From Rickettsiales bacterium (GTDB lineage Bacteria; Pseudomonadota; Alphaproteobacteria; Rs-D84), in contig JAIRUP010000014.1 of NCBI GenBank assembly GCA_031254335.1, positions 3,043 through 67,042 on the forward strand: 64,000 bases of DNA, in the 5' to 3' direction. How positions within the stretch are numbered: position 1 is the first letter of the stretch; each line of letters starts with the position of its first letter. Position numbers and translations under genes: made by a program. Shown piece by piece: positions 12,411 through 51,232 of the stretch. A model generated the notes under the pieces. The model saw only the letters and a program-made list of their open reading frames with translations, had not been told where the DNA came from and made no database searches.

Positions 12411-13550
12411 ATGATAAAAGTTCCGCCGCACCATTTGTATATCCATGTCCCGTTCTGCGAAAGGAAATGCCCCTATTGCGCGTTCCATTCAAGCGCGGAA
12501 AAACCGGATTGGGACAAATACGCGGCGGATATAATCGCGGCGATAAGCGAAAGCCCGGGCTGCGAAGTCCCGACGATATTCTTCGGCGGCGGCACGCCAA
12601 GCCTTATGCCGGCGGCGACGCTTGAAAAAATCCTGAACGCCGCGCATAAGCATTTCACAGTTTCGCCCGACGCCGAAATCACAATCGAAATGAATCCCGG
12701 AACCCTTGAATTCCCCTCCCGGGAGGGGGTGGCCGACTTGTCCGCCGAAGCCCAAAGGGCGAAGGGGGAAGGCCGGGGTGGGAACCAACTATCCGATTAC
12801 AAATCTCTCGGCATAACGCGAATCTCGGTCGGCGCGCAAAGTTTTAATGACGGCGAATTGCGTTTCCTCGGGCGCATACACGACGCGAAGCAGGCGCGCG
12901 AAACCATAACGGCGGCGCAGAACGCGGGCTTCGAAACATCGGCGGACTTTATATACGCCCTGCCCGGCCAAACCGTGGCGGATGTCGAGAAATTATGCCG
13001 TGAAATAAAATCCATGGGCCTGACCCACGCCTCGCTCTACGAACTCACCCTCGAACCTGGTAATAAACTCCCCCCTTGCGGGGGAGTCGGCGACGAAGTC
13101 GCCGGTGGGGGGTCGAAAACGGAGATGTGGCTTTCCATCGGACATATCCTTAACCGCTATGAAGTGTCCAACTACGCCCAGCCCGGCCATGAATGCAAAC
13201 ATAATTCGGGAATCTGGGCGGGAGAGCCTTATATAGGCCTGGGCCCGTCCGCCGCCGGCCGCATATTCGACGGGACTAACTGGTATGAACAATATACTCC
13301 TCCGTCATCACTTCTTCCTTCTTCCTTCGTCCTTCTTCCTTCCCATGACCGCGCGGTTGAAAAAGTGATAACGGGCCTTCGCACCAAGCGCGGCGTCCGC
13401 CTTTCGCCGGATGTCCTGGAAATATTAAACTCCCCGCTTGCGGGAAAGTCGAAAAAGCGCGAGCTTTTTCGGTGGGGGGTCGATTCGCTTGCCCTTTCCG
13501 ACTCCGGCCTTTTAATACTGGACTCCCTGCTGCCGGACATGATAAAATAA
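12411..13550 (+). CDS. hemW: Radical-SAM heme chaperone HemW (HemN-like), carrying four in-frame repeat insertions
   Basis: The CxxxCxxC motif reads HLYIHVPFCERKCPYCAF. The start is set at MIKVPP (12411); the ORF track places it at 12372. Insertions lie at 12708-12787 (family C), 13059-13118 (A), 13299-13345 (TTCTTCC tail) and 13421-13483 (A). Each is a multiple of 3 nt and stop-free. Confidence 0.8.
   Translation: MIKVPPHHLYIHVPFCERKCPYCAFHSSAEKPDWDKYAADIIAAISESPGCEVPTIFFGGGTPSLMPAATLEKILNAAHKHFTVSPDAEITIEMNPGTLEFPSREGVADLSAEAQRAKGEGRGGNQLSDYKSLGITRISVGAQSFNDGELRFLGRIHDAKQARETITAAQNAGFETSADFIYALPGQTVADVEKLCREIKSMGLTHASLYELTLEPGNKLPPCGGVGDEVAGGGSKTEMWLSIGHILNRYEVSNYAQPGHECKHNSGIWAGEPYIGLGPSAAGRIFDGTNWYEQYTPPSSLLPSSFVLLPSHDRAVEKVITGLRTKRGVRLSPDVLEILNSPLAGKSKKRELFRWGVDSLALSDSGLLILDSLLPDMIK
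12708..12787 (+). repeat. Family-C element in-frame in hemW (PSREGVADLSAEAQRAKGEGRGGNQ)
   Basis: It matches the 6296-6372 copy. Confidence 0.8.
13059..13118 (+). repeat. Family-A element in-frame in hemW
   Basis: CTCCCCCCTTGCGGGGGAGTCGGCGACGAAGTCGCCGGTGGGGGGTCG. Confidence 0.8.
13299..13345 (+). repeat. TTCTTCC-type tail repeat in-frame in hemW (PSSLLPSSFVLLPS)
   Basis: The same TTCTTCCTTCTTCC motif appears at 4930, 6178, 18140 and 21500. Confidence 0.7.
13421..13483 (+). repeat. Family-A element in-frame in hemW
   Basis: CTCCCCGCTTGCGGGAAAGTCG..GGTGGGGGGTCG. Confidence 0.8.
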
Positions 13551-27960: not shown

Positions 27961-28797
27961 TCAATTTATTTTCCTAATGGCGCGAAGGCGCGCCGAGCGG
28001 GCGCGCGGGTTGGCGGCGACCTCGCTGTCGCTCGCCGCGTCGCCGCGGACGACGGAAACGAATTCGGGCGTGTCCACGGCTGGAAGGCGCGGGTCGCCCT
28101 TGGCTTCGGTCAGGCTGCGCATGAAGTCTTTGACAAGCCGGTCTTCAAGGGAATGGAAGGAAACGACCGCCAGGGTCCCGCCGGGTTTCAGCATGACGGA
28201 CGCCTTGCCCAAAGCCGTCTCGATTTCGTCCAGCTCGTCGTTCACATAAATGCGGAATGCCTGGAATGTGCGCTGGGCGGATTTCGGGTCGTAAGAGCCG
28301 CGCTCGATTGCGGCCTTTAATTGTCCGGTGGTGGACAAGGGCCGCGCCAGGATGATTTCTTCCGCGATGAATTTCGCCTTTGGCTCCTCGCCGAATCGCT
28401 GCATGATTTTAATCAGCATATCCTTGCTGGCGGAATTTATGAAGTCCGCGGCGGATTCGCCCTCTCGCGACATACGCATGTCCAAAGGCCCGTCAAGGCG
28501 GTGCGAAAATCCGCGCTCGGGCTCGTCAAGCTGCATGGAAGACACGCCAAGGTCGAATACGATTGCATCGGGCTTGACGCCCGCTTTGTCGATTTCGGAA
28601 AACGGCGCGCGAATAAGCCTGACGCCGGCGACCTCGGATACGGTCGGGTCGCGGTCGAAAGCGACGACGGTCGCGCCGCGCTCCAAGAACGCCTCTGAAT
28701 ACCCGCCCGCGCCGAAAGTCGCGTCGACAATCGTCTTGCCCTTGATGTCGCCGAGAGCTTCCAAAACTTGCCCAAGCATTACGGGAATGTGCTTCAT
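27961..28797 (-). CDS. rsmH: 16S rRNA (cytosine1402-N4)-methyltransferase RsmH
   Basis: It has the HIPVML and FGAGGYS motifs. The start is at MKHIPV, giving an ATGA overlap with the dnaE stop; the 75-codon upstream extension in the ORF track is rejected. Confidence 0.8.
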   Translation of the reverse strand: MKHIPVMLGQVLEALGDIKGKTIVDATFGAGGYSEAFLERGATVVAFDRDPTVSEVAGVRLIRAPFSEIDKAGVKPDAIVFDLGVSSMQLDEPERGFSHRLDGPLDMRMSREGESAADFINSASKDMLIKIMQRFGEEPKAKFIAEEIILARPLSTTGQLKAAIERGSYDPKSAQRTFQAFRIYVNDELDEIETALGKASVMLKPGGTLAVVSFHSLEDRLVKDFMRSLTEAKGDPRLPAVDTPEFVSVVRGDAASDSEVAANPRARSARLRAIRKIN

Positions 28798-31700
28798 AAC
28801 AGCTCCATCTTCGGCGAAAGGCGCGCCATGCTTTCCAAAGCGGCGGGCGTAAGGCGGTATGTTTTGGGCAAGGTTATGGTGGTGATTTTTCCGCCGGAAT
28901 GAACGGATATTTTTATCTTGGAAATTCCCGGGCGAAGGGCGTCCAGCATGGTGTGCAAGTCGCGCGCGGAATTTTCGTCGTGGATTTCGATGGACGCGCC
29001 GGATACTTCGCCCGCGACCCATTCCGCAAGCGGAATGGCGTTGTCTATTATGATTGACACGCGCTCGTCGCGGACGCTGGTCCGCGCGTTTATCATGACA
29101 AGGCTTCCGTCGGAAATATTGTTGAAGATTTTATTGATGTCGTTTCCGAAGGACACGGCCTCGACATTGCCGTCAAGGTCGGAACCTTTGACGACAAGCA
29201 TTTTCTTGCCGGCTTTCGTCATGCGTATTTTCGCGTTCTCCACGAACATGGGAACCATGATGTTGGTCCGGTCTGGAAGGCTTTGGATTTTGGAGGAAGA
29301 TTTGACCATGCCGCTCTTCGCGAAAAGGTTTTTGTATTGGTCCAAAGGATGGGCGGAGATATAGAATCCCAGCATGGCGTATTCGCCGGCCAGCTTGTCG
29401 CCGAAGGACCACGGCGCGGCGTCGTCAAGCTGCTTGGACAATTTGTTGTCGATTACATCGTCGGAGCCTGCGGCGTCGAACAGGGATATTCCGGCGGCCT
29501 TTGCGCCCGCGGCGTATCCGATTATTCGGTCCATGTTCTGGAAAAGTTTTGCGCGGTTGGCGTCGAGCGAATCCAAAGCGCCGGACTTCACAAAGGCTTC
29601 CAGCACGCGCTTGTTCAGCATGCCTTCGGTTCGTTTTGCAAAGTCGGTAAGGTTCTTGAAAGGCCCGTTCGCCTTGCGTTCGTTTGCGATTTGTTCGGCC
29701 GCGGCGACGCCGACGCCTTTAAGCGCGGCCAGGGCGAAAACGATGCTGCGCCCGCGTGTCGTGAATAAAGCGTCCGAGGAATTGATGTCGGGCTGCGCGA
29801 TTTTAAGGCCGAAATTCGCGGTCGCGTCGTCGATGAACATGGACAGCTTGTCGGCGTTGTCGCGGTTGTGGCTCATGCTTGCGGCGATGAATTCGGCGGG
29901 ATAGTTGGCTTTGAGATAGGCGCATTGGTTTGATATTACGCCATAGCAGACCGAGTGTGATTTGTTGAATCCGTATTCCGCGAACTTCGCGAAAAGGTTC
30001 CAAATCTCCACGGCTTCCGATTCGGACATGTTGGAAACTTTGACGCAGCCGCTTGTGAATTTTGGGCGGATGGATTCCATCAGGTCTTTAAGTTTCTTGC
30101 CCATGGCCTTTCGAAGTCCGTCGGCCTCTCCCGGGGTGAATCCTGCAAGGCGTTTTGACGCCTCCATGATTTGCTCCTGATAAACAAGGATTCCGTAAGT
30201 CTCTTTAAGGAATTCTTCGGTCTTCGGGTGCGGATAGTGGATGGGCTGTCGGCCGTGCTTCCGCTCGATGAAGTCGGGAATGTTGGCCATGGGACCCGGG
30301 CGGTAAAGCGCGATGACGGCGACGATTTCCTCGAACGCGGTGGGGCGCATCTGGCGCAGCGCGTTGCGCATGCCCTGGGATTCAAGCTGGAAGACTCCGG
30401 CGGTCTTCGCCTCTTGGAAAAGTCTGAAAGTCTTCTCGTCGTCCAGCGGAATGTTGTCGACATCGATAAGAACGCCGTGATTGTCTTTGATAAGACGCGC
30501 GGCGTATTTCAGGATTGTCAAAGTGGACAAGCCCAAAAAGTCGAACTTGATAAGGCCGATGTCTTCGACGATGCCCATGTCGTATTGGGTCGCGGGAATT
30601 CCGTTGGACGGGTCCTTGTAAAGCGGCGCGAGTTCGACAAGCGGCCTGTCGCCGACGATGACGCCGGCGGCGTGAACGCCCGCATGGCGGTAAAGCCCTT
30701 CCAGCTGCGACGCGATGTCCACGACCTTGGCCAGCTCTTCGGAACCGGCAATCATCTCCTGCATCTGCGGGGTCTTCGCGATGATTTTGGGCAGCGGGTC
30801 TTTTTCCATCATGTCGATAAGCTTGGCCAGCTTGTCGGCCTTGGCGTAAGACAACCCCATGACCCGCGCGACATCGCGGATGGTTCCTTTGGCTTTGAGC
30901 GAGCCGAAGGTTATGATTCGGGACACCTGTTCGTAATTGTATTTTTTCTGCATGTATTCGATGACGCGCTCGATTCCGTCGGGGTCGAAATCGATGTCGA
31001 AATCGGGCATGGAAATTCGGTCGGGGTTAAGGAACCGTTCGAACAGAAGGCGATACTTGAAAGGGTTCACGGCGGTTATTCCCAAAGCCCACGACACGAC
31101 GGAACCCGCGCCGGAGCCTCGCCCGGGCCCGACCCAGACATCGTTGTCCTTGCACCAGCTTACATAGTCGGCGACTATTAAAAAGTATCCCGGGAATTTC
31201 ATGCGAACTATGACGGACAGCTCGAATTCGGCCTGGTCGAAGTATGTCTTGCGGGTCGCCTCGTCGGTAATGCCTTCGGTGTCCAAGTGGGCGGCAAGGC
31301 CGAGCATGGTCTTGTCCCGAAGCATGGCGCACTCCTGCTCGAAGTCGGGCGCGAATTTGGGAAGCAAAGGGGGGCGTTGCGGAATCACATAAGCGCAGCG
31401 TTTCGCGATATTGACGGTGTTGGCTATGGCCTCGGGAAGGTCGGAGAAAATCTCGCGCATCTGTTCGGCGGATTTGAAATAGTGTTCGGGCGTCTCGCGG
31501 CGGCGGTCGGGGTCGATGATTTTGGTTCCGGCTGCGATGCAAAGAAGCGCGTCCTGGGCTTCGAAAGCGTCGGGCGTCTCGAAGAAAATATTGTTGGTGG
31601 CGACAATGGGAATGTTTTTTTCATAAGCGATATTTAACAGTTCTGGTTCGGATTTGATTTCGGATTCCAACCCGTGGCGTTGAAGTTCTATGTAAAACCG

Positions 31701-32216
31701 CGTGGGAAGAATGTCGGAAAATCTCGAAGCGAATTCGCGCGCAAGATTGTCCTGATTGTTAAGTATGGCGTGGGCGACGGGCCCCTTCGCGCCGCCGGAT
31801 AGGCAAATCAAACCCTCGGACGCGGCGGCCAGTTCGGAGAAAGTTATATAAGGCCCGAGATGGGCGTTTCCATCGCGGAGATAAGCGTCGGTTATAAGTT
31901 TGGAAAGATTCTTGAAGCCTTCCTCGGACTGCGCAAGCAAAGCGATTTCGGAAAGCTGCGAAGCGCGAAGGGTCGCGGGTTGGGCGGTGTCGTGCTGGTT
32001 GAAGGAAATGGTCGCGCCAATAATCGGCTGAATGCCTTCGGTTCGGCAAACTTTGGAAAATTGCGGCGCGCCGAAAAGGGCGTTGGTGTCTGTAATGGCG
32101 ACGCTTGGCATGCCCAACCGCTTTGCTATTCCAGGAATTTTCTTGACGGGAATGGCTCCTTCCGCCAATGAATAAGCGGAATGCAACCGAAGATGTATGA
32201 ATTTATTATCCGCCAT
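28794..32216 (-). CDS. dnaE: DNA polymerase III alpha subunit
   Basis: It has a PHP domain (HLRLHSAYSL), a polymerase core and an OB fold. The start is set at MADNKF (32216). The ORF-track extension to 32423 runs through a family-A repeat in the leader. Confidence 0.9.
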   Translation of the reverse strand: MADNKFIHLRLHSAYSLAEGAIPVKKIPGIAKRLGMPSVAITDTNALFGAPQFSKVCRTEGIQPIIGATISFNQHDTAQPATLRASQLSEIALLAQSEEGFKNLSKLITDAYLRDGNAHLGPYITFSELAAASEGLICLSGGAKGPVAHAILNNQDNLAREFASRFSDILPTRFYIELQRHGLESEIKSEPELLNIAYEKNIPIVATNNIFFETPDAFEAQDALLCIAAGTKIIDPDRRRETPEHYFKSAEQMREIFSDLPEAIANTVNIAKRCAYVIPQRPPLLPKFAPDFEQECAMLRDKTMLGLAAHLDTEGITDEATRKTYFDQAEFELSVIVRMKFPGYFLIVADYVSWCKDNDVWVGPGRGSGAGSVVSWALGITAVNPFKYRLLFERFLNPDRISMPDFDIDFDPDGIERVIEYMQKKYNYEQVSRIITFGSLKAKGTIRDVARVMGLSYAKADKLAKLIDMMEKDPLPKIIAKTPQMQEMIAGSEELAKVVDIASQLEGLYRHAGVHAAGVIVGDRPLVELAPLYKDPSNGIPATQYDMGIVEDIGLIKFDFLGLSTLTILKYAARLIKDNHGVLIDVDNIPLDDEKTFRLFQEAKTAGVFQLESQGMRNALRQMRPTAFEEIVAVIALYRPGPMANIPDFIERKHGRQPIHYPHPKTEEFLKETYGILVYQEQIMEASKRLAGFTPGEADGLRKAMGKKLKDLMESIRPKFTSGCVKVSNMSESEAVEIWNLFAKFAEYGFNKSHSVCYGVISNQCAYLKANYPAEFIAASMSHNRDNADKLSMFIDDATANFGLKIAQPDINSSDALFTTRGRSIVFALAALKGVGVAAAEQIANERKANGPFKNLTDFAKRTEGMLNKRVLEAFVKSGALDSLDANRAKLFQNMDRIIGYAAGAKAAGISLFDAAGSDDVIDNKLSKQLDDAAPWSFGDKLAGEYAMLGFYISAHPLDQYKNLFAKSGMVKSSSKIQSLPDRTNIMVPMFVENAKIRMTKAGKKMLVVKGSDLDGNVEAVSFGNDINKIFNNISDGSLVMINARTSVRDERVSIIIDNAIPLAEWVAGEVSGASIEIHDENSARDLHTMLDALRPGISKIKISVHSGGKITTITLPKTYRLTPAALESMARLSPKMELL

Positions 32217-32235
32217 TTTCCATTTGCCATCTTTA

Positions 32236-32395
32236 TGATTAACTCCCCCCCCTTGCGGGGGAGTCGTCGCGCCGGCGCGAAGCGCAGGCGGACGGTGGGG
32301 GGGGGTCATCCCTCGACGGTTCGCGCCGAAGACGGACGACTCATCCCTTCTTGCTTCTATCTTGAAAATATACCCCTTCCCTTTCATTAAGTCAA
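32236..32395 (+). repeat. Family-A element plus CATCCCTTCTT-type tail in the dnaE 5' leader
   Basis: AACTCCCCCCCCTTGCGGGGGAGTCG..GGTGGGGGGGGGTCA followed by a pyrimidine-rich tail. Confidence 0.7.
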
Positions 32396-32409
32396 CACCC
32401 TTTAACCGC

Positions 32410-32437
32410 TTGATTCCCCACAAATATTTGATATAAT
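32410..32437 (+). promoter_or_regulatory. Candidate sigma70 promoter (TTGATT-N16-TATAAT), plus strand, divergent from dnaE
   Basis: -35 at 32410-32415 and -10 at 32432-32437. Confidence 0.45.
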
Positions 32438-32443
32438 TAACAA

Positions 32444-32585
32444 AGCGCGGGCGAATTGCCTGCGTTGGGGTGTGAAGACCTTTTCAAATGACTCTTGCTT
32501 CGGCAGGAGGTCGGCGCAAGCCGAACTATCCATTTGAATAGTCTTCACCCTCCTGCCACTTATTTTATAAGTGGCATTTTTTTTA
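32444..32585 (+). ncRNA. Candidate small RNA of about 140 nt: promoter, two mutually exclusive helices, then a strong intrinsic terminator
   Basis: Helix A pairs GTGAAGAC (32472) with GTCTTCAC (32541). Helix B pairs GGCAGGAGG (32502) with CCTCCTGCC (32549). The terminator hairpin GCCACTTA-TTTTA-TAAGTGGC is at 32555-32575 and is followed by 8 T. Confidence 0.35.
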
Positions 32586-32603
32586 ACCGAACAGGATGAA
32601 TCT

Positions 32604-32729
32604 ATGGCATACAAGAAAGCACCCGCCACACATACGGTCGTGAAGGAACTGAGAAAGTTCATGGATACCTTTTCGTTTTCCAAAACTCCAAAAAGAATTG
32701 AAATCAAAAAGTTATTGTTGCTCCAATGA
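32604..32729 (+). CDS. Possible 41-codon basic peptide (MAYKKAPATHTVVKELRKFMDTFSFSKTPKRIEIKKLLLLQ)
   Basis: ATG with an AGGATGA ribosome-binding site upstream, just after the terminator. It is not in the ORF track because it is shorter than 60 aa. Confidence 0.2.
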   Translation: MAYKKAPATHTVVKELRKFMDTFSFSKTPKRIEIKKLLLLQ

Positions 32730-32752
32730 GAATAAATGCAACACTTTTCATA

Positions 32753-33541
32753 TCATGCCTCCGCAACCTTGTCAATAATCGTCCTAATATCATGATTGTG
32801 GCTCTTGCTTAGGATTCCGAAGATTTTCAGCATTTCAAGGAATATCCCGATGTTCTTGGAGTCGATTATGAAATCGGCGGTTTCTTTTGCTCTCGCTGTT
32901 CGTCCGATAATGGAAGAATTAAGCTCGGAAATTCTAAACCATACTCTCACGATTGCACCAATTCCTTGCGCATAGCCTCGGGGCAACAACTCTATGTCCA
33001 ATTTATAATTTTTATTAATCTCTTTATATAATCGGATATAACGCTTTACAGATTTGAACTCTTCAAAACCGAATTCCATATTGAAAATTATTTTCGTTCC
33101 GCGGCCGGTTCTTGCGGGTTTGTCCTGCTTTAACTTGGAACGCAGAGATTCTTCAACAAAATCCGATGTTTTGGATATTTCTCCTTTTATCTTTGATAAT
33201 TCGTTCTTGGAAACAAGACCTGTTTGGCATGCATAAAAAATTATGTCCGATAATTCCCATGATTTAAGTTTTTTGTCGCCAAGCTCCAACTCAAGCGCGC
33301 CATTAATATCTTTATCGTATCCGTCTGCCTTTGTGTCGCCCAAAGATGTCTTTGATTTTACAGCGTATCCTATCATCCAATCGCACCACGCATTTTTAGG
33401 AACGCTCTCGTCGCGGACTTTCACAATAGGATAATCAGAGTCCTTGTCATCCTTGCGCAAAATAAGATTATACCTCGCCGCCCGGACCGGGAAGGTCATG
33501 ATAATTCGCTTGTTCGCATTATCAATCTTTTTTATCCACAT
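32753..33541 (-). CDS. Hypothetical protein of 262 aa in the low-GC island, translationally coupled to the DNA methyltransferase; a restriction endonuclease partner is conceivable (ELELGDKK could be a PD-(D/E)xK-like motif)
   Basis: It overlaps the methyltransferase 3' end by 20 nt. The region is AT-rich relative to its flanks and has no recognisable domain. Confidence 0.35.
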   Translation of the reverse strand: MWIKKIDNANKRIIMTFPVRAARYNLILRKDDKDSDYPIVKVRDESVPKNAWCDWMIGYAVKSKTSLGDTKADGYDKDINGALELELGDKKLKSWELSDIIFYACQTGLVSKNELSKIKGEISKTSDFVEESLRSKLKQDKPARTGRGTKIIFNMEFGFEEFKSVKRYIRLYKEINKNYKLDIELLPRGYAQGIGAIVRVWFRISELNSSIIGRTARAKETADFIIDSKNIGIFLEMLKIFGILSKSHNHDIRTIIDKVAEA

Positions 33542-34658
33542 AGTGTTCCCCTAACAAATTCTTGAAATATGAATGTATCAGCAGGTCTTCGGACACATTG
33601 TCGTCGCCGTAATCCGCCGCCAAATGCTTCAAGAATCCCCACTTGCGCAAGCTCTTTCTGACAAAAGCGTCCCGCAGGCGGTCGAACGCCGGATAATCTA
33701 TCATGACATCGCTGTTCCCGAAATAGTATGGAATGTTCGGGATATATTCCTTGAACACATCGGCATAGCAATAAAACGCCAGCTTGCCCTTCGGAACGCG
33801 GATGGAGTTATAAACTTCGTTCTCGATAAAAGTCCGCGTGCGTTTAAGGGCGTTTATGTCGCGCATGGTCCAAAAGTGCGCGACAAAATCTTTTTCATTT
33901 TTGTTCGGATATTTCGTTATATAGTTGCTTAGCTTGTCAAACTGCCCAATTCGGAATCGCTTGTTGTCTTTTGTCTTGAAAGCGTGATTGCAAATTGAAT
34001 CGTAAGTCATGCCGTTCCCGCGTTTATACAACGCAATCACTATCGGGAATTGGGTCGCTTTGGAAGTCGCCGAAAACTCTCCGCTGCTGATGACAAGGCT
34101 GTCAATCAAGCTGTAATTATCCTTAAATTTCCCAAGCCCCTCGAAGTTCGCCTTCTTAATCAGATAGGACAAAGGATGCAGAACGCAAATATAATCCGCA
34201 GCCAACTTGTCATAGGACAGCAAAAACGAAATCCCCAAATCGCGGTGTTTCAAGTCCGGGTCTATCTCGCAATTCTCGCGTTTTATGCCGTTGCGTATGA
34301 TAGAGGTCGTGTCGTTATAAGGCGGATTCCCGACAATTATCAATTTGTCGGAATCGCCCAAGCCATACTGCCCGCGCCCGACATCTTTCAAGCTGTTGTG
34401 ATGAAATAATCGGCGATTATCCGTGTTTTTTTCGGCCTGAGCCAAAGCCGTCTTATCGCAATCCGCGCCGATAGAGCCGGGCATGACAAGAAAATTTCCA
34501 TACCCGCAAGAAGTATCCAAAACAGTATATTCCGCCGCGTTTCCTATATTTTTGCGAAGCATGTCATAAACGATTGATACGACGCTTCCCGGCGTGTAAT
34601 AACTGCCGTAATTTATGGTGTCTTCGTATCCAAGATGAGATTGTTCCCGCCTTAACAT
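33522..34658 (-). CDS. Gamma-class N6-adenine DNA methyltransferase (TaqI-like motif order X-I-IV)
   Basis: Motif X reads YYTPGSVVSIVYDML. Motif I reads VLDTSCGYGNFLV. Motif IV reads IIVGNPPYN. Confidence 0.8.
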   Translation of the reverse strand: MLRREQSHLGYEDTINYGSYYTPGSVVSIVYDMLRKNIGNAAEYTVLDTSCGYGNFLVMPGSIGADCDKTALAQAEKNTDNRRLFHHNSLKDVGRGQYGLGDSDKLIIVGNPPYNDTTSIIRNGIKRENCEIDPDLKHRDLGISFLLSYDKLAADYICVLHPLSYLIKKANFEGLGKFKDNYSLIDSLVISSGEFSATSKATQFPIVIALYKRGNGMTYDSICNHAFKTKDNKRFRIGQFDKLSNYITKYPNKNEKDFVAHFWTMRDINALKRTRTFIENEVYNSIRVPKGKLAFYCYADVFKEYIPNIPYYFGNSDVMIDYPAFDRLRDAFVRKSLRKWGFLKHLAADYGDDNVSEDLLIHSYFKNLLGEHYVDKKD

Positions 34659-34673
34659 TAAAATTTTTGTCCT

Positions 34674-37268
34674 TTACTTCAACTTCCCGCAGCAGTGCTT
34701 GTATTTAAGGCCCGACCCGCAGGGACAGGCGTCGTTGCGGTTTAGCGCGGCGTCGGCCTGCTCGTGCTGCTTCTTCATCTCGTCGATGTCGGATTCGGAC
34801 ATTTCAAGTTTGCAGATATATGCGACCAGCGCGCGCTTGAAATTCGCCATCATCTCCTCGAACAGGGCGAAGGCTTCCTTCTTGTATTCGTTCAGCGGAT
34901 TTTTCTGGCCGTATCCCCGAAGGCCGATTCCGGTCTGCAAATAATCCATATTCTGCAAATGCTTTTTCCATCCGGCGTCAAGGACATGGAGCGCGATTTG
35001 CTTTTCTGCCGAGAACATCCCGTTGCCATACCTCTGCCGCTGGCTCTCATAGCGGCGTTTCGCAAGGCGCAAAAGTGTCTCGAACGCCTTCATCTCGGTA
35101 ATTTCGGCGTTGGTCTTCCAGTCGCCGATGTCGGTTATGTCCATACCGAACAAGCGGATGAATTCGGAATGCATGAGTTCGATGTTCCATTCGTCGGGCC
35201 GGGATTTTTCGGGGATTCCGGCTTCGGCCACCTGCTCGACCACATCGGTAATGATGTCTTCGATGAATGGTTTAAGGTCGCCGTCTTTTACGGCGATAAA
35301 TTCGGCGCGCTGCTTGTAGACGACTTTGCGCTGGTCGTTCATGACATCGTCGTATTTAAGAAGTTCCTTGCGCGATTCGAAATAACGGGCCTCGACGCGC
35401 TTCTGGGCCTTTTCCAAAGCCTTGGAAATCCATGGGTGCGTGATGGCCTCGTCGGGTTTAAGGCCAAGTTTGACCAGCATTCCGTCAAGCCTCTGCGCGC
35501 CGAAAATCCGCATCAGGTCGTCTTCCAGCGAAAGGAAGAATTTGGAGTCGCCGGGGTCGCCCTGCCGCCCGGACCGCCCGCGAAGCTGGTTGTCGATACG
35601 GCGCGACTCGTGCCGTTCGGTGCCGACGACATAAAGCCCGCCCGCGCGCAGAACAAGGCCTTTGTTGATTTCGACCTCGTCGTAAATGGCCTGCTTTTTC
35701 GCCTCGAAGTCGGGGCCCGCGGGGTCCAAAGCGGAGATTTCCTCTTCGGCGTTTCCGCCGAGTTTGATGTCGGTCCCGCGCCCGGCCATGTTGGTTGCGA
35801 TGGTGATGGCTCCGGGCCGCCCGGCCTGCGCGATGATTTTGGATTCCATGGCGTGCTGTTTCGCGTTCAGGACATTGGGCGAAATTTTAAGCTCGCGCCG
35901 GATGATTTCGGCCAGCTCTTCGGACTTTTCGATGGTGATGGTTCCGACCAGAACGGGCTGCTTGCGCGCCTGGCACTCGCGGAGCGTCTCGATAATCGCG
36001 CGGTGTTTTTCGGCCTTGGTGCGGTATATTTCGTCGTGATGGTCGACGCGGGCGATGGCGCGGTTGGTGGGAATGGACACGACGCGGAGCTTGTAAATCT
36101 CCTCGAATTCCACGGCCTCGGTCATGGCGGTCCCGGTCATGCCGGAAAGGGTTTCATACAAACGGAAAAGGTTTTGATAGGATATGGATGATACCGTCTG
36201 GTTTTCGGGCTGAATCTCCACGCCCTCTTTTGCCTCGATGGCCTGGTGCAGCCCGCGCCCGAATCGGCGGCCGGAAAGCACGCGGCCGGTGAATTCGTCG
36301 ACAATCATAATCTGGCCGTCGCGCACGACATAATTGACATCAAGCTGATACATGTATGTCGCGAGCAAAGCCTGCTGAATATGCATGACCAACGCGGCGT
36401 TAAGGGCGTCGTAAAGGTTCCCGCCTTGAAGCAAGCCGGCGTCGGACAGCATCTTTGTTATGGCGTCCACGCCTATGTCGGTAAGGGTCACATGGCGGTC
36501 CTTCTCGTCCTTCTTGATGTGTTCGGGCGCAAGCTGTTTCACAATCGCGGCGATTTTGGAATACAGTTCGGAAGAGTCCTCGGCCTGGCCGGATATGATG
36601 AGCGGAGTGCGCGCCTCGTCGATAAGAATCGAATCGACCTCGTCCACAATCGCGAAAAACAAAGGCCGCAAAACCTGCTGTTCGGCCGAGAATTTCATAT
36701 TGTCGCGCAAATAATCGAAGCCCAGCTCGGAATTGGTTACATAAGTGATGTCGCAGGCGTAGGCCTCGCGCCGCTCGTCGTCGGTCATGTCGTGCTGGAT
36801 TATTCCGATTGTCATGCCAAGGAATTTGTAAATCTGGCCCATCCATTCGGCGTCGCGGTTGGCGAGATAGTCGTTGACGGTTATAAGGTGCGCGCCTTTC
36901 CCGTGCAGTGCTTTGAGGTAAAGCGCAAGGGTTGCGACAAGGGTCTTTCCCTCGCCGGTCTTCATCTCGGCGATTCGCCCGTCGGACAAGACCATCCCGC
37001 CGACAAGCTGAACATTGAAATGGCGCAAACCGATTGTGCGGATTGAAGCCTCGCGCACGGCGGCGAAAGCGTCGGGAATGATGTCCTTTTCGGACGCGCC
37101 GGCGGCAAGCCGCGCGCGGAGTTTTTCGGTGGACGCGCGAAGGTCGCTGTCGGACATGTTGTGATATTTTTGTTCAAGGTCGTTTATGAAGGAAACGCTG
37201 CGGTCGTAACCTTTGACAGCGCGGTCGTTCGCCGACCCGATGATGGCTTTCAATATTTTATTCAGCAT
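34674..37268 (-). CDS. secA: Preprotein translocase ATPase SecA
   Basis: DEAD-like motor motifs are present. The C-terminal zinc-binding tail reads CPCGSGLKYKHCCGK. Confidence 0.95.
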   Translation of the reverse strand: MLNKILKAIIGSANDRAVKGYDRSVSFINDLEQKYHNMSDSDLRASTEKLRARLAAGASEKDIIPDAFAAVREASIRTIGLRHFNVQLVGGMVLSDGRIAEMKTGEGKTLVATLALYLKALHGKGAHLITVNDYLANRDAEWMGQIYKFLGMTIGIIQHDMTDDERREAYACDITYVTNSELGFDYLRDNMKFSAEQQVLRPLFFAIVDEVDSILIDEARTPLIISGQAEDSSELYSKIAAIVKQLAPEHIKKDEKDRHVTLTDIGVDAITKMLSDAGLLQGGNLYDALNAALVMHIQQALLATYMYQLDVNYVVRDGQIMIVDEFTGRVLSGRRFGRGLHQAIEAKEGVEIQPENQTVSSISYQNLFRLYETLSGMTGTAMTEAVEFEEIYKLRVVSIPTNRAIARVDHHDEIYRTKAEKHRAIIETLRECQARKQPVLVGTITIEKSEELAEIIRRELKISPNVLNAKQHAMESKIIAQAGRPGAITIATNMAGRGTDIKLGGNAEEEISALDPAGPDFEAKKQAIYDEVEINKGLVLRAGGLYVVGTERHESRRIDNQLRGRSGRQGDPGDSKFFLSLEDDLMRIFGAQRLDGMLVKLGLKPDEAITHPWISKALEKAQKRVEARYFESRKELLKYDDVMNDQRKVVYKQRAEFIAVKDGDLKPFIEDIITDVVEQVAEAGIPEKSRPDEWNIELMHSEFIRLFGMDITDIGDWKTNAEITEMKAFETLLRLAKRRYESQRQRYGNGMFSAEKQIALHVLDAGWKKHLQNMDYLQTGIGLRGYGQKNPLNEYKKEAFALFEEMMANFKRALVAYICKLEMSESDIDEMKKQHEQADAALNRNDACPCGSGLKYKHCCGKLK

Positions 37269-37415: not shown

Positions 37416-37486
37416 TATAAATAACTCCCCCCTTGCGGGGGAGTCGAAATTTTCAAGGAAAATTTCGGTGAGTGGGGGGGGGTCAA
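37416..37486 (+). repeat. Family-A element; it overlaps the stop of the 37483-37764 gene
   Basis: ACTCCCCCCTTGCGGGGGAGTCGAAATTTTCAAGGAAAATTTCGGTGAGTGGGGGGGGGTCA. Confidence 0.75.
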
Positions 37487-39034: not shown

Positions 39035-40321
39035 ATGCCTGTAATCGTCAAATCTTTCGGGTGCCGCCTGAACGCGCTCGAGGCCGCGAAAATCGAAATC
39101 GTGGCGTCGCGTGCGGGCCTGACCGACGCGCTGATATTCAATACCTGCGCGGTGACAGGCGAAGCGGAAGCCCAGGCCCGGCAAGCCATAAGGAAAGCGG
39201 CAAGGGAAAACCCTGGCGCGCGGATTTTCGTGGTGGGCTGCGGGGCGGACAGGAACCCGGACGGATTTGCGAAGCTGCCCAATGTCGCGGCGGTGATAAA
39301 AAACGCCGACAAATTCACCCCCGAATCATATAACCCAACTCCCCCCTTGCGGGGGAGTCGGCAAGGCGAAGCCGAGCCGGTGGGGGGTCAAAACATAACA
39401 ATCGAAAAATGCGGGCAGTTTTCAAAGGGTTTCGTCCAAATCCAAACGGGCTGCAACTATGCCTGCACATATTGTATTGTCCATACATTGCGCGGCCCCG
39501 CGCGCTCATTTGACTACGACGCAATCCTGGCGCAAACAAAACAGCTGACTTCAAGCGGTTATTCCGAAATCACCCTTACCGGCGTGGACATCGCCTCCTA
39601 CAAGTTCCCCTCCCCTGTCATGGTCGGGCAAGGACCCGACCATCCAGGTCATAAATCCCGCGATAGCGGGTTATTATCACTCATCCAAAAACTCTTGACC
39701 GACGACCCCGACATCCAACGCCTCCGCCTGTCATCCCTTGACCCGGCGCACGACTGGTCGGATTTAATCAAACTTATGAAAGAAAACCCGCGGCTTATGC
39801 CGCACCTTCACCTGTCCATGCAGTCGGGAAGCGACGAAATCCTGCGCCTTATGGCCCGCCGCCACCGCATCGCCGACATATTGAAACTCCCCCCTTGCGG
39901 GAAAGTCGGCGGCTTTGCCGCCGGTGGGGGGTCAATCACCTTCTCCGTGGACATCATAACCGGCTTCCCGGGCGAAACGGACGAACTCTTCCAAGAAACC
40001 CTAGCGACCCTCGAAAAGCTCCGCCCTATAAGAATCCACGCATTCCCGTTTTCGCCGCGCCCCGGCACGCCGGCGGCGACATTTCCAAACCAAGTCCCGA
40101 AATCGGTGGCGAAAGACCGGGTGCGGGAATTAAACGCGCTTGGGACTAAATTCCTAAATGAATTCATGGTTTCCCAACTTGGCCGCCCCACCCAAGTCCT
40201 AATGGAAAGGGGCGGCGTGGGGCGCACCCCGAACGATATAGAGTTTCTTTTTGACGCGCCCGAAGGGGCGATTTTGACCCTTACCCCGACCGAAATAAAA
40301 GACGCAAAATTCAAGGCCTAA
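39035..40321 (+). CDS. MiaB-family radical-SAM tRNA/ribosomal methylthiotransferase (MtaB/RimO-like), carrying three in-frame repeat insertions
   Basis: It has an N-terminal MTTase domain (KSFGCRLNALEAAKIE), the CxxxCxxC motif IQTGCNYACTYCIV, and a TRAM-like C-terminus. Insertions lie at 39327-39393 (A), 39603-39682 (B) and 39881-39934 (A). Confidence 0.8.
   Translation: MPVIVKSFGCRLNALEAAKIEIVASRAGLTDALIFNTCAVTGEAEAQARQAIRKAARENPGARIFVVGCGADRNPDGFAKLPNVAAVIKNADKFTPESYNPTPPLRGSRQGEAEPVGGQNITIEKCGQFSKGFVQIQTGCNYACTYCIVHTLRGPARSFDYDAILAQTKQLTSSGYSEITLTGVDIASYKFPSPVMVGQGPDHPGHKSRDSGLLSLIQKLLTDDPDIQRLRLSSLDPAHDWSDLIKLMKENPRLMPHLHLSMQSGSDEILRLMARRHRIADILKLPPCGKVGGFAAGGGSITFSVDIITGFPGETDELFQETLATLEKLRPIRIHAFPFSPRPGTPAATFPNQVPKSVAKDRVRELNALGTKFLNEFMVSQLGRPTQVLMERGGVGRTPNDIEFLFDAPEGAILTLTPTEIKDAKFKA
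39327..39393 (+). repeat. Family-A element in-frame in the methylthiotransferase gene
   Basis: AACTCCCCCCTTGCGGGGGAGTCGGCAAGGCGAAGCCGAGCCGGTGGGGGGTCA. Confidence 0.8.
39603..39682 (+). repeat. Family-B element in-frame in the methylthiotransferase gene (PSPVMVGQGPDHPGHKSRDSGLLSL)
   Basis: TGTCATGGTCGGGCAAGGACCCGACCATCCAGGTCATAAATCCCGCGATAGCGGGTT. Confidence 0.8.
39881..39934 (+). repeat. Family-A element in-frame in the methylthiotransferase gene
   Basis: CTCCCCCCTTGCGGGAAAGTCGGCGGCTTTGCCGCCGGTGGGGGGTCA. Confidence 0.8.
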
Positions 40322-51142: not shown

Positions 51143-51232
51143 TGGCGGACGGGGTGGGATTTGAACCCACGATACCCTTGCGGGTATGCCGCATTTCGAG
51201 TGCGGTACAATCAACCGCTCTGCCACCCGTCC
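51143..51232 (-). tRNA. tRNA-Ser (CGA), class II
   Basis: On the reverse complement: acceptor stem GGACGGG/CCCGTCC with GCCA, anticodon loop CTCGAAA, a long variable arm, and T-arm GTGGGTTCAAATCCCAC. Confidence 0.85.

Follow-up and report, generated by a model that had tools for sequence, protein, structure and literature searches.

Restriction glycosylases of the PabI family are GTAC-specific adenine DNA glycosylases with a HALFPIPE fold, not phosphodiesterases, and the abasic (apurinic/apyrimidinic, AP) sites left by excision are cut by an intrinsic lysine AP-lyase activity or by other AP endonucleases (PMC7806768, PMC10273834). Excision in the family is characterised by sequence specificity, sensitivity to methylation and independence of divalent cations. 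In bacteria, homologues of the methyltransferase M.PabI are gamma-type enzymes with a C-terminal target recognition domain (TRD), encoded upstream of the restriction gene in the same orientation (PMC4615327). PabI systems and Ku/LigD are reported to exclude each other. The subject of this report is an AT-rich island (positions 32424-34673) between secA and dnaE in a 64,000-nucleotide (nt) stretch of a Rickettsiales bacterium metagenome-assembled genome (MAG; assembly GCA_031254335.1, contig JAIRUP010000014.1, positions 3,043 to 67,042), hereafter the window. The island is very probably a cassette of a PabI-family restriction glycosylase (R) and an N6-methyladenine (m6A) methyltransferase (M), inserted just after the stop codon of secA.

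The CcoLI system of Campylobacter coli comprises R.CcoLI (PDB 7CFA), a GTAC-specific restriction DNA glycosylase with the AP-lyase residue Lys71, supported by Asp53, and a mesophile-type insertion beta-sheet (PMC7806768). The island resembles this system in having M upstream of R on the same strand with overlapping genes, an M protein 49% identical, a predicted HALFPIPE fold, the catalytic Tyr/His/Asp and adenine-pocket Ile/Phe residues, and a GTAC-depleted host genome. Yet, R of the window is ~23-29% identical to R.CcoLI overall (23% in Foldseek), has substitutions at the base-reading residues K17, R19, E47, Q49, Q158, Q164, M166 and Y168 as well as, by the alignment, at D53, N67 and K71 of the AP-lyase region, contains extra insertions (LELEL, GRGTK), and is encoded in an alphaproteobacterial gut MAG, not in Campylobacter. 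With R.PabI/M.PabI of Pyrococcus abyssi (PDB 2DVY, 3WAZ), the island shares the predicted fold, the family mechanism of adenine excision at GTAC as far as homology indicates, and the catalytic triad, which is Y68/H211/D214 in R.PabI, Y52/H222/D225 in R.CcoLI and Y59/H248/D251 in R of the window. The archaeal genes, however, lie tail-to-tail with a longer M, while R.PabI has no insertion beta-sheet, is a weak AP-lyase (PMC4615327, PMC7806768) and is ~18% identical to R of the window. As in HpyAXII of Helicobacter pylori (PMC10273834), a conserved M contrasts with a poorly conserved or altered R, GTAC is strongly avoided, and the genes are inserted in an operon. While R of HpyAXII frequently decays or is replaced by hrgC (PMC10273834), R of the window has remained open and homologous, with a remodelled middle.

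A clade of 253-aa R.PabI-family proteins with M proteins of 376-380 aa, from gut- and termite-type MAGs (Rickettsiales, Ignavibacteria/Melioribacter, Treponematales and Clostridiales; for example P0002/P0028 on contig L011), shares with the window an M that is 83% identical, the identical 20-nt gene overlap and a tight insertion between housekeeping genes. The N-terminus of R (MWIKKID) and its C-terminal 57 aa are likewise 89% identical. Members of this clade keep every functional residue of R.CcoLI and are throughout 65-87% identical among themselves, whereas R of the window is 24% identical over residues 9-205.

A methyltransferase and a PabI-family protein in one cassette

M (33522..34658, minus strand, 378 aa) and R (32753..33541, minus strand, 262 aa) lie where an earlier note, made from the letters alone, had placed them, overlapping by 20 nt (33522..33541, minus strand, ATGTGGATAAAAAAGATTGA) with a GGGGA 7 nt upstream of the R ATG. 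An overlap of 20 nt is also found at L002, L003, L007, L011, L013 and L015; it measures 11 nt at L008 and L010 and 4 nt in Campylobacter jejuni. The overlap in the window implies that translation of R would be coupled to that of M.

The motifs X, I and IV that the earlier note had read in M are present in gamma-class order as YYTP (residues 20-23), DTSCGYGNF (residues 48-56; 34491..34517, minus strand) and NPPY (residues 111-114; 34317..34328, minus strand). Motif I, expected to bind S-adenosylmethionine, is invariant or nearly so in the alignment of M proteins, and the catalytic motif IV is invariant; its NPPY is the sole [DNS]PP[YFW] motif that a scan detected in any large open reading frame (ORF) of the window. 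M matches the PADLOC MTase_II model PDLC03275 over nearly its full length (7.3e-89) and Pfam N6_Mtase above the cut-off, with sub-threshold matches only in NCBIfam and no match at E <= 0.01 among PDB sequences. More than 100 homologues from many phyla share 55-83% identity with it, and the C. jejuni M encoded directly upstream of a near-identical R.CcoLI homologue shares 49% over 331 aa. In the alignment, M follows the canonical pattern from end to end, C-terminal TRD included, and shows no cluster of window-specific changes. Compared with the L011 copy, to which it is 83% identical, the ratio of nonsynonymous to synonymous substitution rates (dN/dS) is 0.07. Judged by these matches, M is a gamma-class N6-adenine DNA methyltransferase of the bacterial M.PabI/M.CcoLI type, as had been predicted, and its location upstream of R in the same orientation, gamma motif order and C-terminal TRD follow the arrangement of the bacterial PabI lineage. 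The predicted target is GTAC, and by homology M most likely makes GTm6AC.

R had been considered unrecognisable, but it matches Pfam PF09522 (RE_R_Pab1) over residues 162-259 (E 1.5e-16, 61 bits against a cut-off of 25), a PADLOC Type II REase model (2.7e-5) and, among PDB sequences, R.CcoLI (7cfa, E 4.6e-11) and R.PabI (2dvy, 3waz and 5iff, ~2e-3). An identical protein is named 'MAG: R.Pab1 family restriction endonuclease [Rickettsiales bacterium]' in NCBI. A hidden Markov model (HMM) of the 253-aa clade, whose profile finds R.CcoLI at 3.9e-97, scores 153 bits against full-length R, 52 bits against its middle alone and 87 bits against its C-terminal part. No NCBIfam model matched R, and a PADLOC ThsB/TIR match (E 0.036) was dismissed as noise. 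An AlphaFold2 model of R, built from an alignment of family members, reached a predicted local distance difference test score (pLDDT) of 76.7 and a predicted template modelling score (pTM) of 0.78, with low confidence (pLDDT <50) only at residues 61-94. When this model was compared with the PDB, the top 16 Foldseek matches were all R.CcoLI or R.PabI (best E 2.5e-15, template modelling score 0.66-0.80), and no other significant fold was found, the next matches having E >= 0.1. In sequence and modelled structure alike, R is a PabI-family member with a predicted HALFPIPE fold. The PD-(D/E)xK nuclease fold or motif for which the earlier note had suggested looking is absent from the structural matches, and the Pfam and PADLOC matches are of the PabI type only; such a motif search was misdirected, because the PabI family excises adenine as a DNA glycosylase. 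Likewise, the ELELGDKK stretch once read as a loose nuclease motif falls within the insertion, modelled with low confidence, where R.CcoLI has its AP-lyase lysine. The family membership of both genes is of an already known kind, with R annotated automatically, and the core of the finding is ordinary in this respect.

As a PabI (HALFPIPE) Type II R-M (restriction-modification) cassette inserted into the secA-dnaE spacer, the pair would work through M producing GTm6AC and through R, translationally coupled by the 20-nt overlap, acting as a restriction DNA glycosylase. The enzyme dimer would clamp DNA in its basic half-pipe, unwind the site and flip out G and A, a mechanism described for the family (PMC7806768, PMC10273834). 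The abasic sites would be broken by the intrinsic lysine AP-lyase or by host AP endonucleases, and host DNA would be protected by methylation of the same adenine. For R of the window, we infer this mode of action from homology.

The mosaic middle of R

R is a mosaic of conserved ends and a divergent middle. The middle (residues 9-205; 32927..33517, minus strand) comprises the DNA-binding part of the half-pipe with the catalytic loop W55-x-I57-G58-Y59, while the C-terminal part (residues 206-262; 32756..32926, minus strand) carries the adenine-pocket residue F241 and the catalytic residues H248 (32798-32800) and D251 (32789-32791). Compared with the nearest relative, P0002 on L011, the ends are 89% identical and residues 9-205 only 24%, whereas Campylobacter R proteins are 45-48% identical to P0002 over the same stretch. 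DNA identity to L011 is ~78% across M, drops to ~45% from 33526 to 32882 and returns to ~80% in the last 120 nt of R; between these two contigs, the M proteins are 83% and the R proteins 39% identical. The ratio of middle to ends in identity to the family consensus is 0.34 for R, against a family median of 1.06. Similarly, the nonsynonymous divergence (dN) of the middle is 0.82, compared with 0.09 in the clade control, while the C-terminal part has a dN of 0.10 and a dN/dS of 0.04 relative to L011, its dN being equal to that of M.

The middle nevertheless aligns in frame and collinearly to the clade HMM (E 3e-18 at Z=1, as a single-sequence search), and it is therefore homologous, neither frameshifted nor foreign; a frameshift or an unrelated sequence as its origin is ruled out by this in-frame collinearity. 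By chance, its 197 codons would remain open with a probability of 6e-7, and none of 20000 shuffles did. The segment is also more basic (+10) than in canonical members. Within and beyond it, R keeps the catalytic Y59, H248 and D251 and the adenine-pocket residues I57 and F241, with F241, H248 and D251 invariant across the family. Identity of the middle to all members is nearly flat at 17-27%, with a slightly better score against the 253-aa clade than against Campylobacter. A sensitive HMMER search with the middle alone among 1.84e9 cluster representatives returned only itself and identified no donor lineage. The segment was either swapped in from an unsampled, very divergent member or diverged in place at ~8 times the amino-acid rate of the family; synonymous divergence is saturated everywhere (proportion of synonymous differences, pS, 0.66-0.81) and does not separate recombination from acceleration in place.

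A second mosaic PabI-family R, P0020 (L015:318-977), is encoded on a 1-kb contig downstream of an apparently intact M 3' end. Its ends are 70% and its middle 36% identical to P0002. The middle of P0020 is unrelated to that of R in the window and is without the ~35-residue insertion region, and 7 of 16 functional positions, namely the residues listed for R.CcoLI in PMC7806768 as mapped onto R, are changed.

Insertion and mobility of the cassette

Searching with SecA as a probe, the closest genomes were gut alphaproteobacterial MAGs with SecA 67-81% identical, including Candidatus Enterousia. Conservation of the pair at this locus in relatives, which would have spoken for a core-genome origin in the earlier note, was not seen, as M or R is present in 0 of 80 secA loci. 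In the 11 relatives with dnaE within the fetched locus, secA is followed directly by dnaE and rsmH in all but one (10/11), with a spacer of ~40-165 bp in most. The alignment to the empty site of the closest relative (L016) diverges right after the secA stop, the palindromic element upstream of dnaE being ancestral. Because relatives have an empty secA-dnaE junction, the M-R pair is an insertion of ~2.3 kb.

The insertion agrees with the horizontal acquisition proposed earlier from base composition. The composition itself was read correctly: the GC content of 32424-34673 is 0.431, against 0.538 for the whole window, and is the lowest among all 2250-bp windows in the 64 kb (mean 0.536, sd 0.023; none equally low). 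As a sign of recent arrival, however, low GC is weak evidence, because the cassette lies 8-17 points below its flanks in every host examined yet tracks host GC (0.22 to 0.49). In line with its host, the island has zero GATC, ACGT and GTAC sites, with roughly 8-11, 6-8 and 3-8 expected, respectively.

In 'Rickettsiales' MAGs, the M-then-R cassette occurs in five contexts, namely hydrolase-ruvB, ABC transporter-parC (L003, L013 and L014), gyrB-ompA, clpB-contig end and, in the window, secA-dnaE, and it is also found in Melioribacter and Treponematales. A canonical R is carried by 14 conjugative Campylobacter plasmids; no PabI-family homologue was found in a phage collection. With differing insertion sites, and empty sites in relatives, the cassette is mobile.

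At L002:8878-11754, L013:8884-12993 and L003:8884-13000, hardly any spacer separates the cassette from the housekeeping genes on either side, the M start abutting the upstream stop and the R stop overlapping or abutting the start of ruvB or parC. This tight packing suggests seamless operon insertion, possibly with translational coupling to essential genes. In a relative with SecA 72% identical (L017:9689-10450), the secA-dnaE spacer holds an unrelated 253-aa ORF, kinase-like by eye (HFDLN...IDWD), and the spacer may thus be a recurrent insertion site. Two Melioribacter loci encode the same M protein, but R is called as a 55-aa remnant in one (L009:6121-6288) and as the full 253-aa gene in the other (L008:6121-6882); the remnant is an instance of the R decay described for the PabI family.

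Recognition residues and target-site avoidance

GTAC occurs 5 times in the 64 kb, whereas shuffles that preserve dinucleotides give 81.5 +/- 8.8 and a maximal-order Markov model predicts 48.6, a ~10-16-fold depletion, and it is also depleted in every other locus carrying the cassette. Helicobacter and Campylobacter are likewise reported to avoid GTAC strongly (PMC10273834). One of the five surviving sites (51205) is within a tRNA gene (51146-51232, minus strand), where it presumably cannot mutate away.

We lean towards the view that R still works, or did so until recently, as an adenine glycosylase, in a way that would remain compatible with GTAC methylation. Several observations weigh against it. 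GATC (1 site, at 2377, versus 206-349 expected) and ACGT (3 sites, at 1033, 4078 and 54355, versus 138-188 expected) are purged even more than GTAC, the three having the lowest observed/expected ratios among the 256 tetramers. GTAC depletion is not specific evidence for this reason, and it could predate this variant of R. A large-ORF scan of the window, which did not cover C5-methylase motifs, found no other [DNS]PP[YFW] methylase or R-M genes for GATC or ACGT; GATC depletion is common to the related MAG loci L007, L011, L013 and L014, and ACGT depletion is much more lineage-specific. The specificity of M itself is predicted at 49% identity.

The residues of R weigh in the same direction. All eight positions that read G, T and C are replaced (K17N, R19I, E47D, Q49M, Q158G, Q164G, M166I and Y168R in R.CcoLI numbering; N25, I27, D54, M56, G189, G195, I197 and R199 in R), although no fewer than 125 of 127 homologues keep each of them. 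Positions D53, N67 and the AP-lyase K71 (R.CcoLI numbering), each kept in at least 124 of the 127, differ too by the alignment. The alignment puts A60 and L92 at Asp53 and Lys71 of R.CcoLI, with K90, K91 and K93 adjacent, within the poorly modelled residues 61-94. In total, R deviates at 11 of the 16 functional positions, each of which is conserved in at least 124 of the 127 homologues; these include the 120 best-scoring of 959 family clusters, and other divergent members may lie beyond. Only 15 of the 57 family-invariant columns of the middle (26%) are kept. Because these base-reading residues and invariant columns are lost, it is unlikely that R reads GTAC in the canonical mode, and, with this near-complete loss and no sister sequence, R could be inactive. 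Membership in the family and fold is not lowered by the loss of base-reading residues. Whether this copy is active at present seems to us, from its sequence, evenly balanced.

Alternative explanations

The most serious competitor, which we consider possible but somewhat doubtful, is that M is effectively solitary and that R was disarmed by its replaced or remodelled DNA-reading segment, leaving an inactive or non-specific DNA-binding remnant heading to decay. M might then persist because it shields the cell from incoming PabI systems ('vaccination') or has an epigenetic regulatory role. In the PabI family, inactivation or replacement of R beside a conserved M is common (PMC10273834), R is truncated in Melioribacter L009, and between the window and L011 M has remained 83% identical where R is 39%. 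R has also lost 11 of its 16 functional residues and, in the middle, 42 of 57 invariant columns, and the middle has no relative among 1.84e9 representatives, all of which points the same way. Yet, the 262 codons contain no stop or frameshift (the chance of an open middle being 6e-7), R retains an intact WxIGY catalytic loop together with H248 and D251, and the more basic middle (+10) fits retained DNA binding. An R that has long been non-functional is hard to reconcile with these data, because the C-terminal catalytic segment (dN 0.10, dN/dS 0.04) is as constrained as M. The change in R is also selective, five catalytic and adenine-pocket residues being kept while all eight G/T/C-reading residues are replaced in an open, basic segment, and it could be speculated that R remains active as a PabI-family glycosylase but recognises a new site, or a longer one that includes GTAC, its DNA-reading module having been exchanged or re-evolved, with the guanine pocket and the T/C contacts rebuilt and the chemistry of adenine excision retained. 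P0020, an independent mosaic with a different middle, hints that the segment is exchangeable. However, with 26% of invariant middle columns kept, catalytic retention is only modestly above background, and R is a singleton sequence without a conserved sister lineage. Moreover, M is canonical and, because its TRD is unchanged, an R directed to another target would kill the host if that target lacked the methylated adenine and no second methylase gave protection from attack at non-GTAC sites; the window scan revealed no such methylase. We therefore regard a new specificity as unlikely.

Two further explanations carry much less weight than a PabI-family cassette. Of the two options in the earlier note, an R-M system or a novel defence module, the first has stood, while an effector of unfamiliar fold beside the methyltransferase now has next to nothing in its favour: the low pairwise similarity of the R middle to anything known is its sole support, and it is set against significant Pfam, PDB and fold matches to the PabI family that are collinear over the full length, and against the wide occurrence of the same cassette with a canonical R. 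It is also very improbable that the mosaic arose during metagenome assembly as a chimera of the R genes from two strains. In a MAG contig such as this one, conserved ends could in principle bridge two haplotypes, but an independent Logan assembly (L001, SRR14710927) contains the identical secA-M-R sequence. In addition, the ends are only ~80% identical in DNA to the nearest known relative, and are not k-mers shared with a sampled second genome, and the middle keeps the reading frame and aligns collinearly with family members.

Surroundings of the island

The cassette is flanked by secA (34674-37268) and dnaE (28794-32216); the dnaE ORF was listed from 32423, and alignment with L016 places its real start at 32216. 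At the left junction (34659..34676, minus strand), 15 nt, including an AGGA, separate the secA stop codon (34674-34676) from the M start. M and R are probably read through from secA, because this gap leaves no space for a promoter of their own. On the other side, a non-coding 3' flank (32330..32752) without a counterpart in the empty site of L016 includes a hairpin with a 10-bp stem (32554-32576). A remnant of the ancestral secA-dnaE spacer (32217..32329, minus strand), just upstream of the dnaE start, contains a GC-rich palindromic repeat with its core at 32243-32265. Nothing convincing was found when direct or inverted repeats flanking the island were sought as integration scars.

A 101-aa ORF (32402-32707) is probably spurious, because it has no family match in the Pfam, PADLOC and NCBIfam libraries and has the hairpin inside. 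On the plus strand at 32410-32586, opposite to M and R and antisense to this ORF with its hydrophobic start, the 3' flank of the insertion has a promoter-like TTGATT-16-TATAAT (extended -10 TG, 10/12 matches), followed ~120 nt downstream by a terminator-like strong hairpin with a T8 tail (32554-32586). The arrangement may encode a small RNA or have come about by chance; an Rfam scan of the whole window yielded three tRNAs only and nothing at this site.

The GC-rich repeat is ~60-70 nt long and has the form TGACCCCCCACCG-(variable palindromic spacer)-CGACTCCCCCGCAAGGGGGGAGTT. Five copies are present in the window, with none expected by chance, all in minus-strand orientation (114-136, 13066-13088, 32243-32265, 37423-37445 and 39337-39359). 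A similar element is found at the same position as the copy upstream of dnaE in L016, and one copy is within a 428-aa ORF (39035-40321), apparently in frame (peptide TPPLRGSRQGEAEPVGG). The repeats may be comparable to the Rickettsia palindromic elements, of which they remind us.

Breadth of the family and implications

Database-wide, a profile search put the R family at 959 clusters at 90% identity, and more than 2000 clusters at this identity were counted for M. The source names include MAGs of Rickettsiales, Ignavibacteria, Spirochaetia/Treponema, Clostridiales, Endomicrobium, Bacteroidota and Planctomycetota, and many record names suggest insect-gut metagenomes. The PabI family is thus much wider than stated in a 2023 review, in which restriction glycosylases are confined to Helicobacteraceae/Campylobacteraceae and a few hyperthermophilic archaea (PMC10273834). 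This wider distribution and the mosaic R are what give the finding moderate interest, as it is otherwise largely explained by a known family.

R of the window represents a natural experiment, in which the residues for chemistry are kept while every residue known to read the bases of GTAC is replaced. To our knowledge, restriction glycosylases are the only restriction enzymes that excise bases instead of hydrolysing phosphodiesters. If R is inactive, it would illustrate a further way, besides frameshift and gene replacement, of disarming a very toxic R while keeping the methylase. An active R would show how the HALFPIPE fold can acquire a changed specificity, and, should a new specificity prove true, R would be the first PabI-family enzyme with a different one. 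Together with P0020, this would suggest that the middle of the half-pipe serves as a swappable recognition module between conserved ends.

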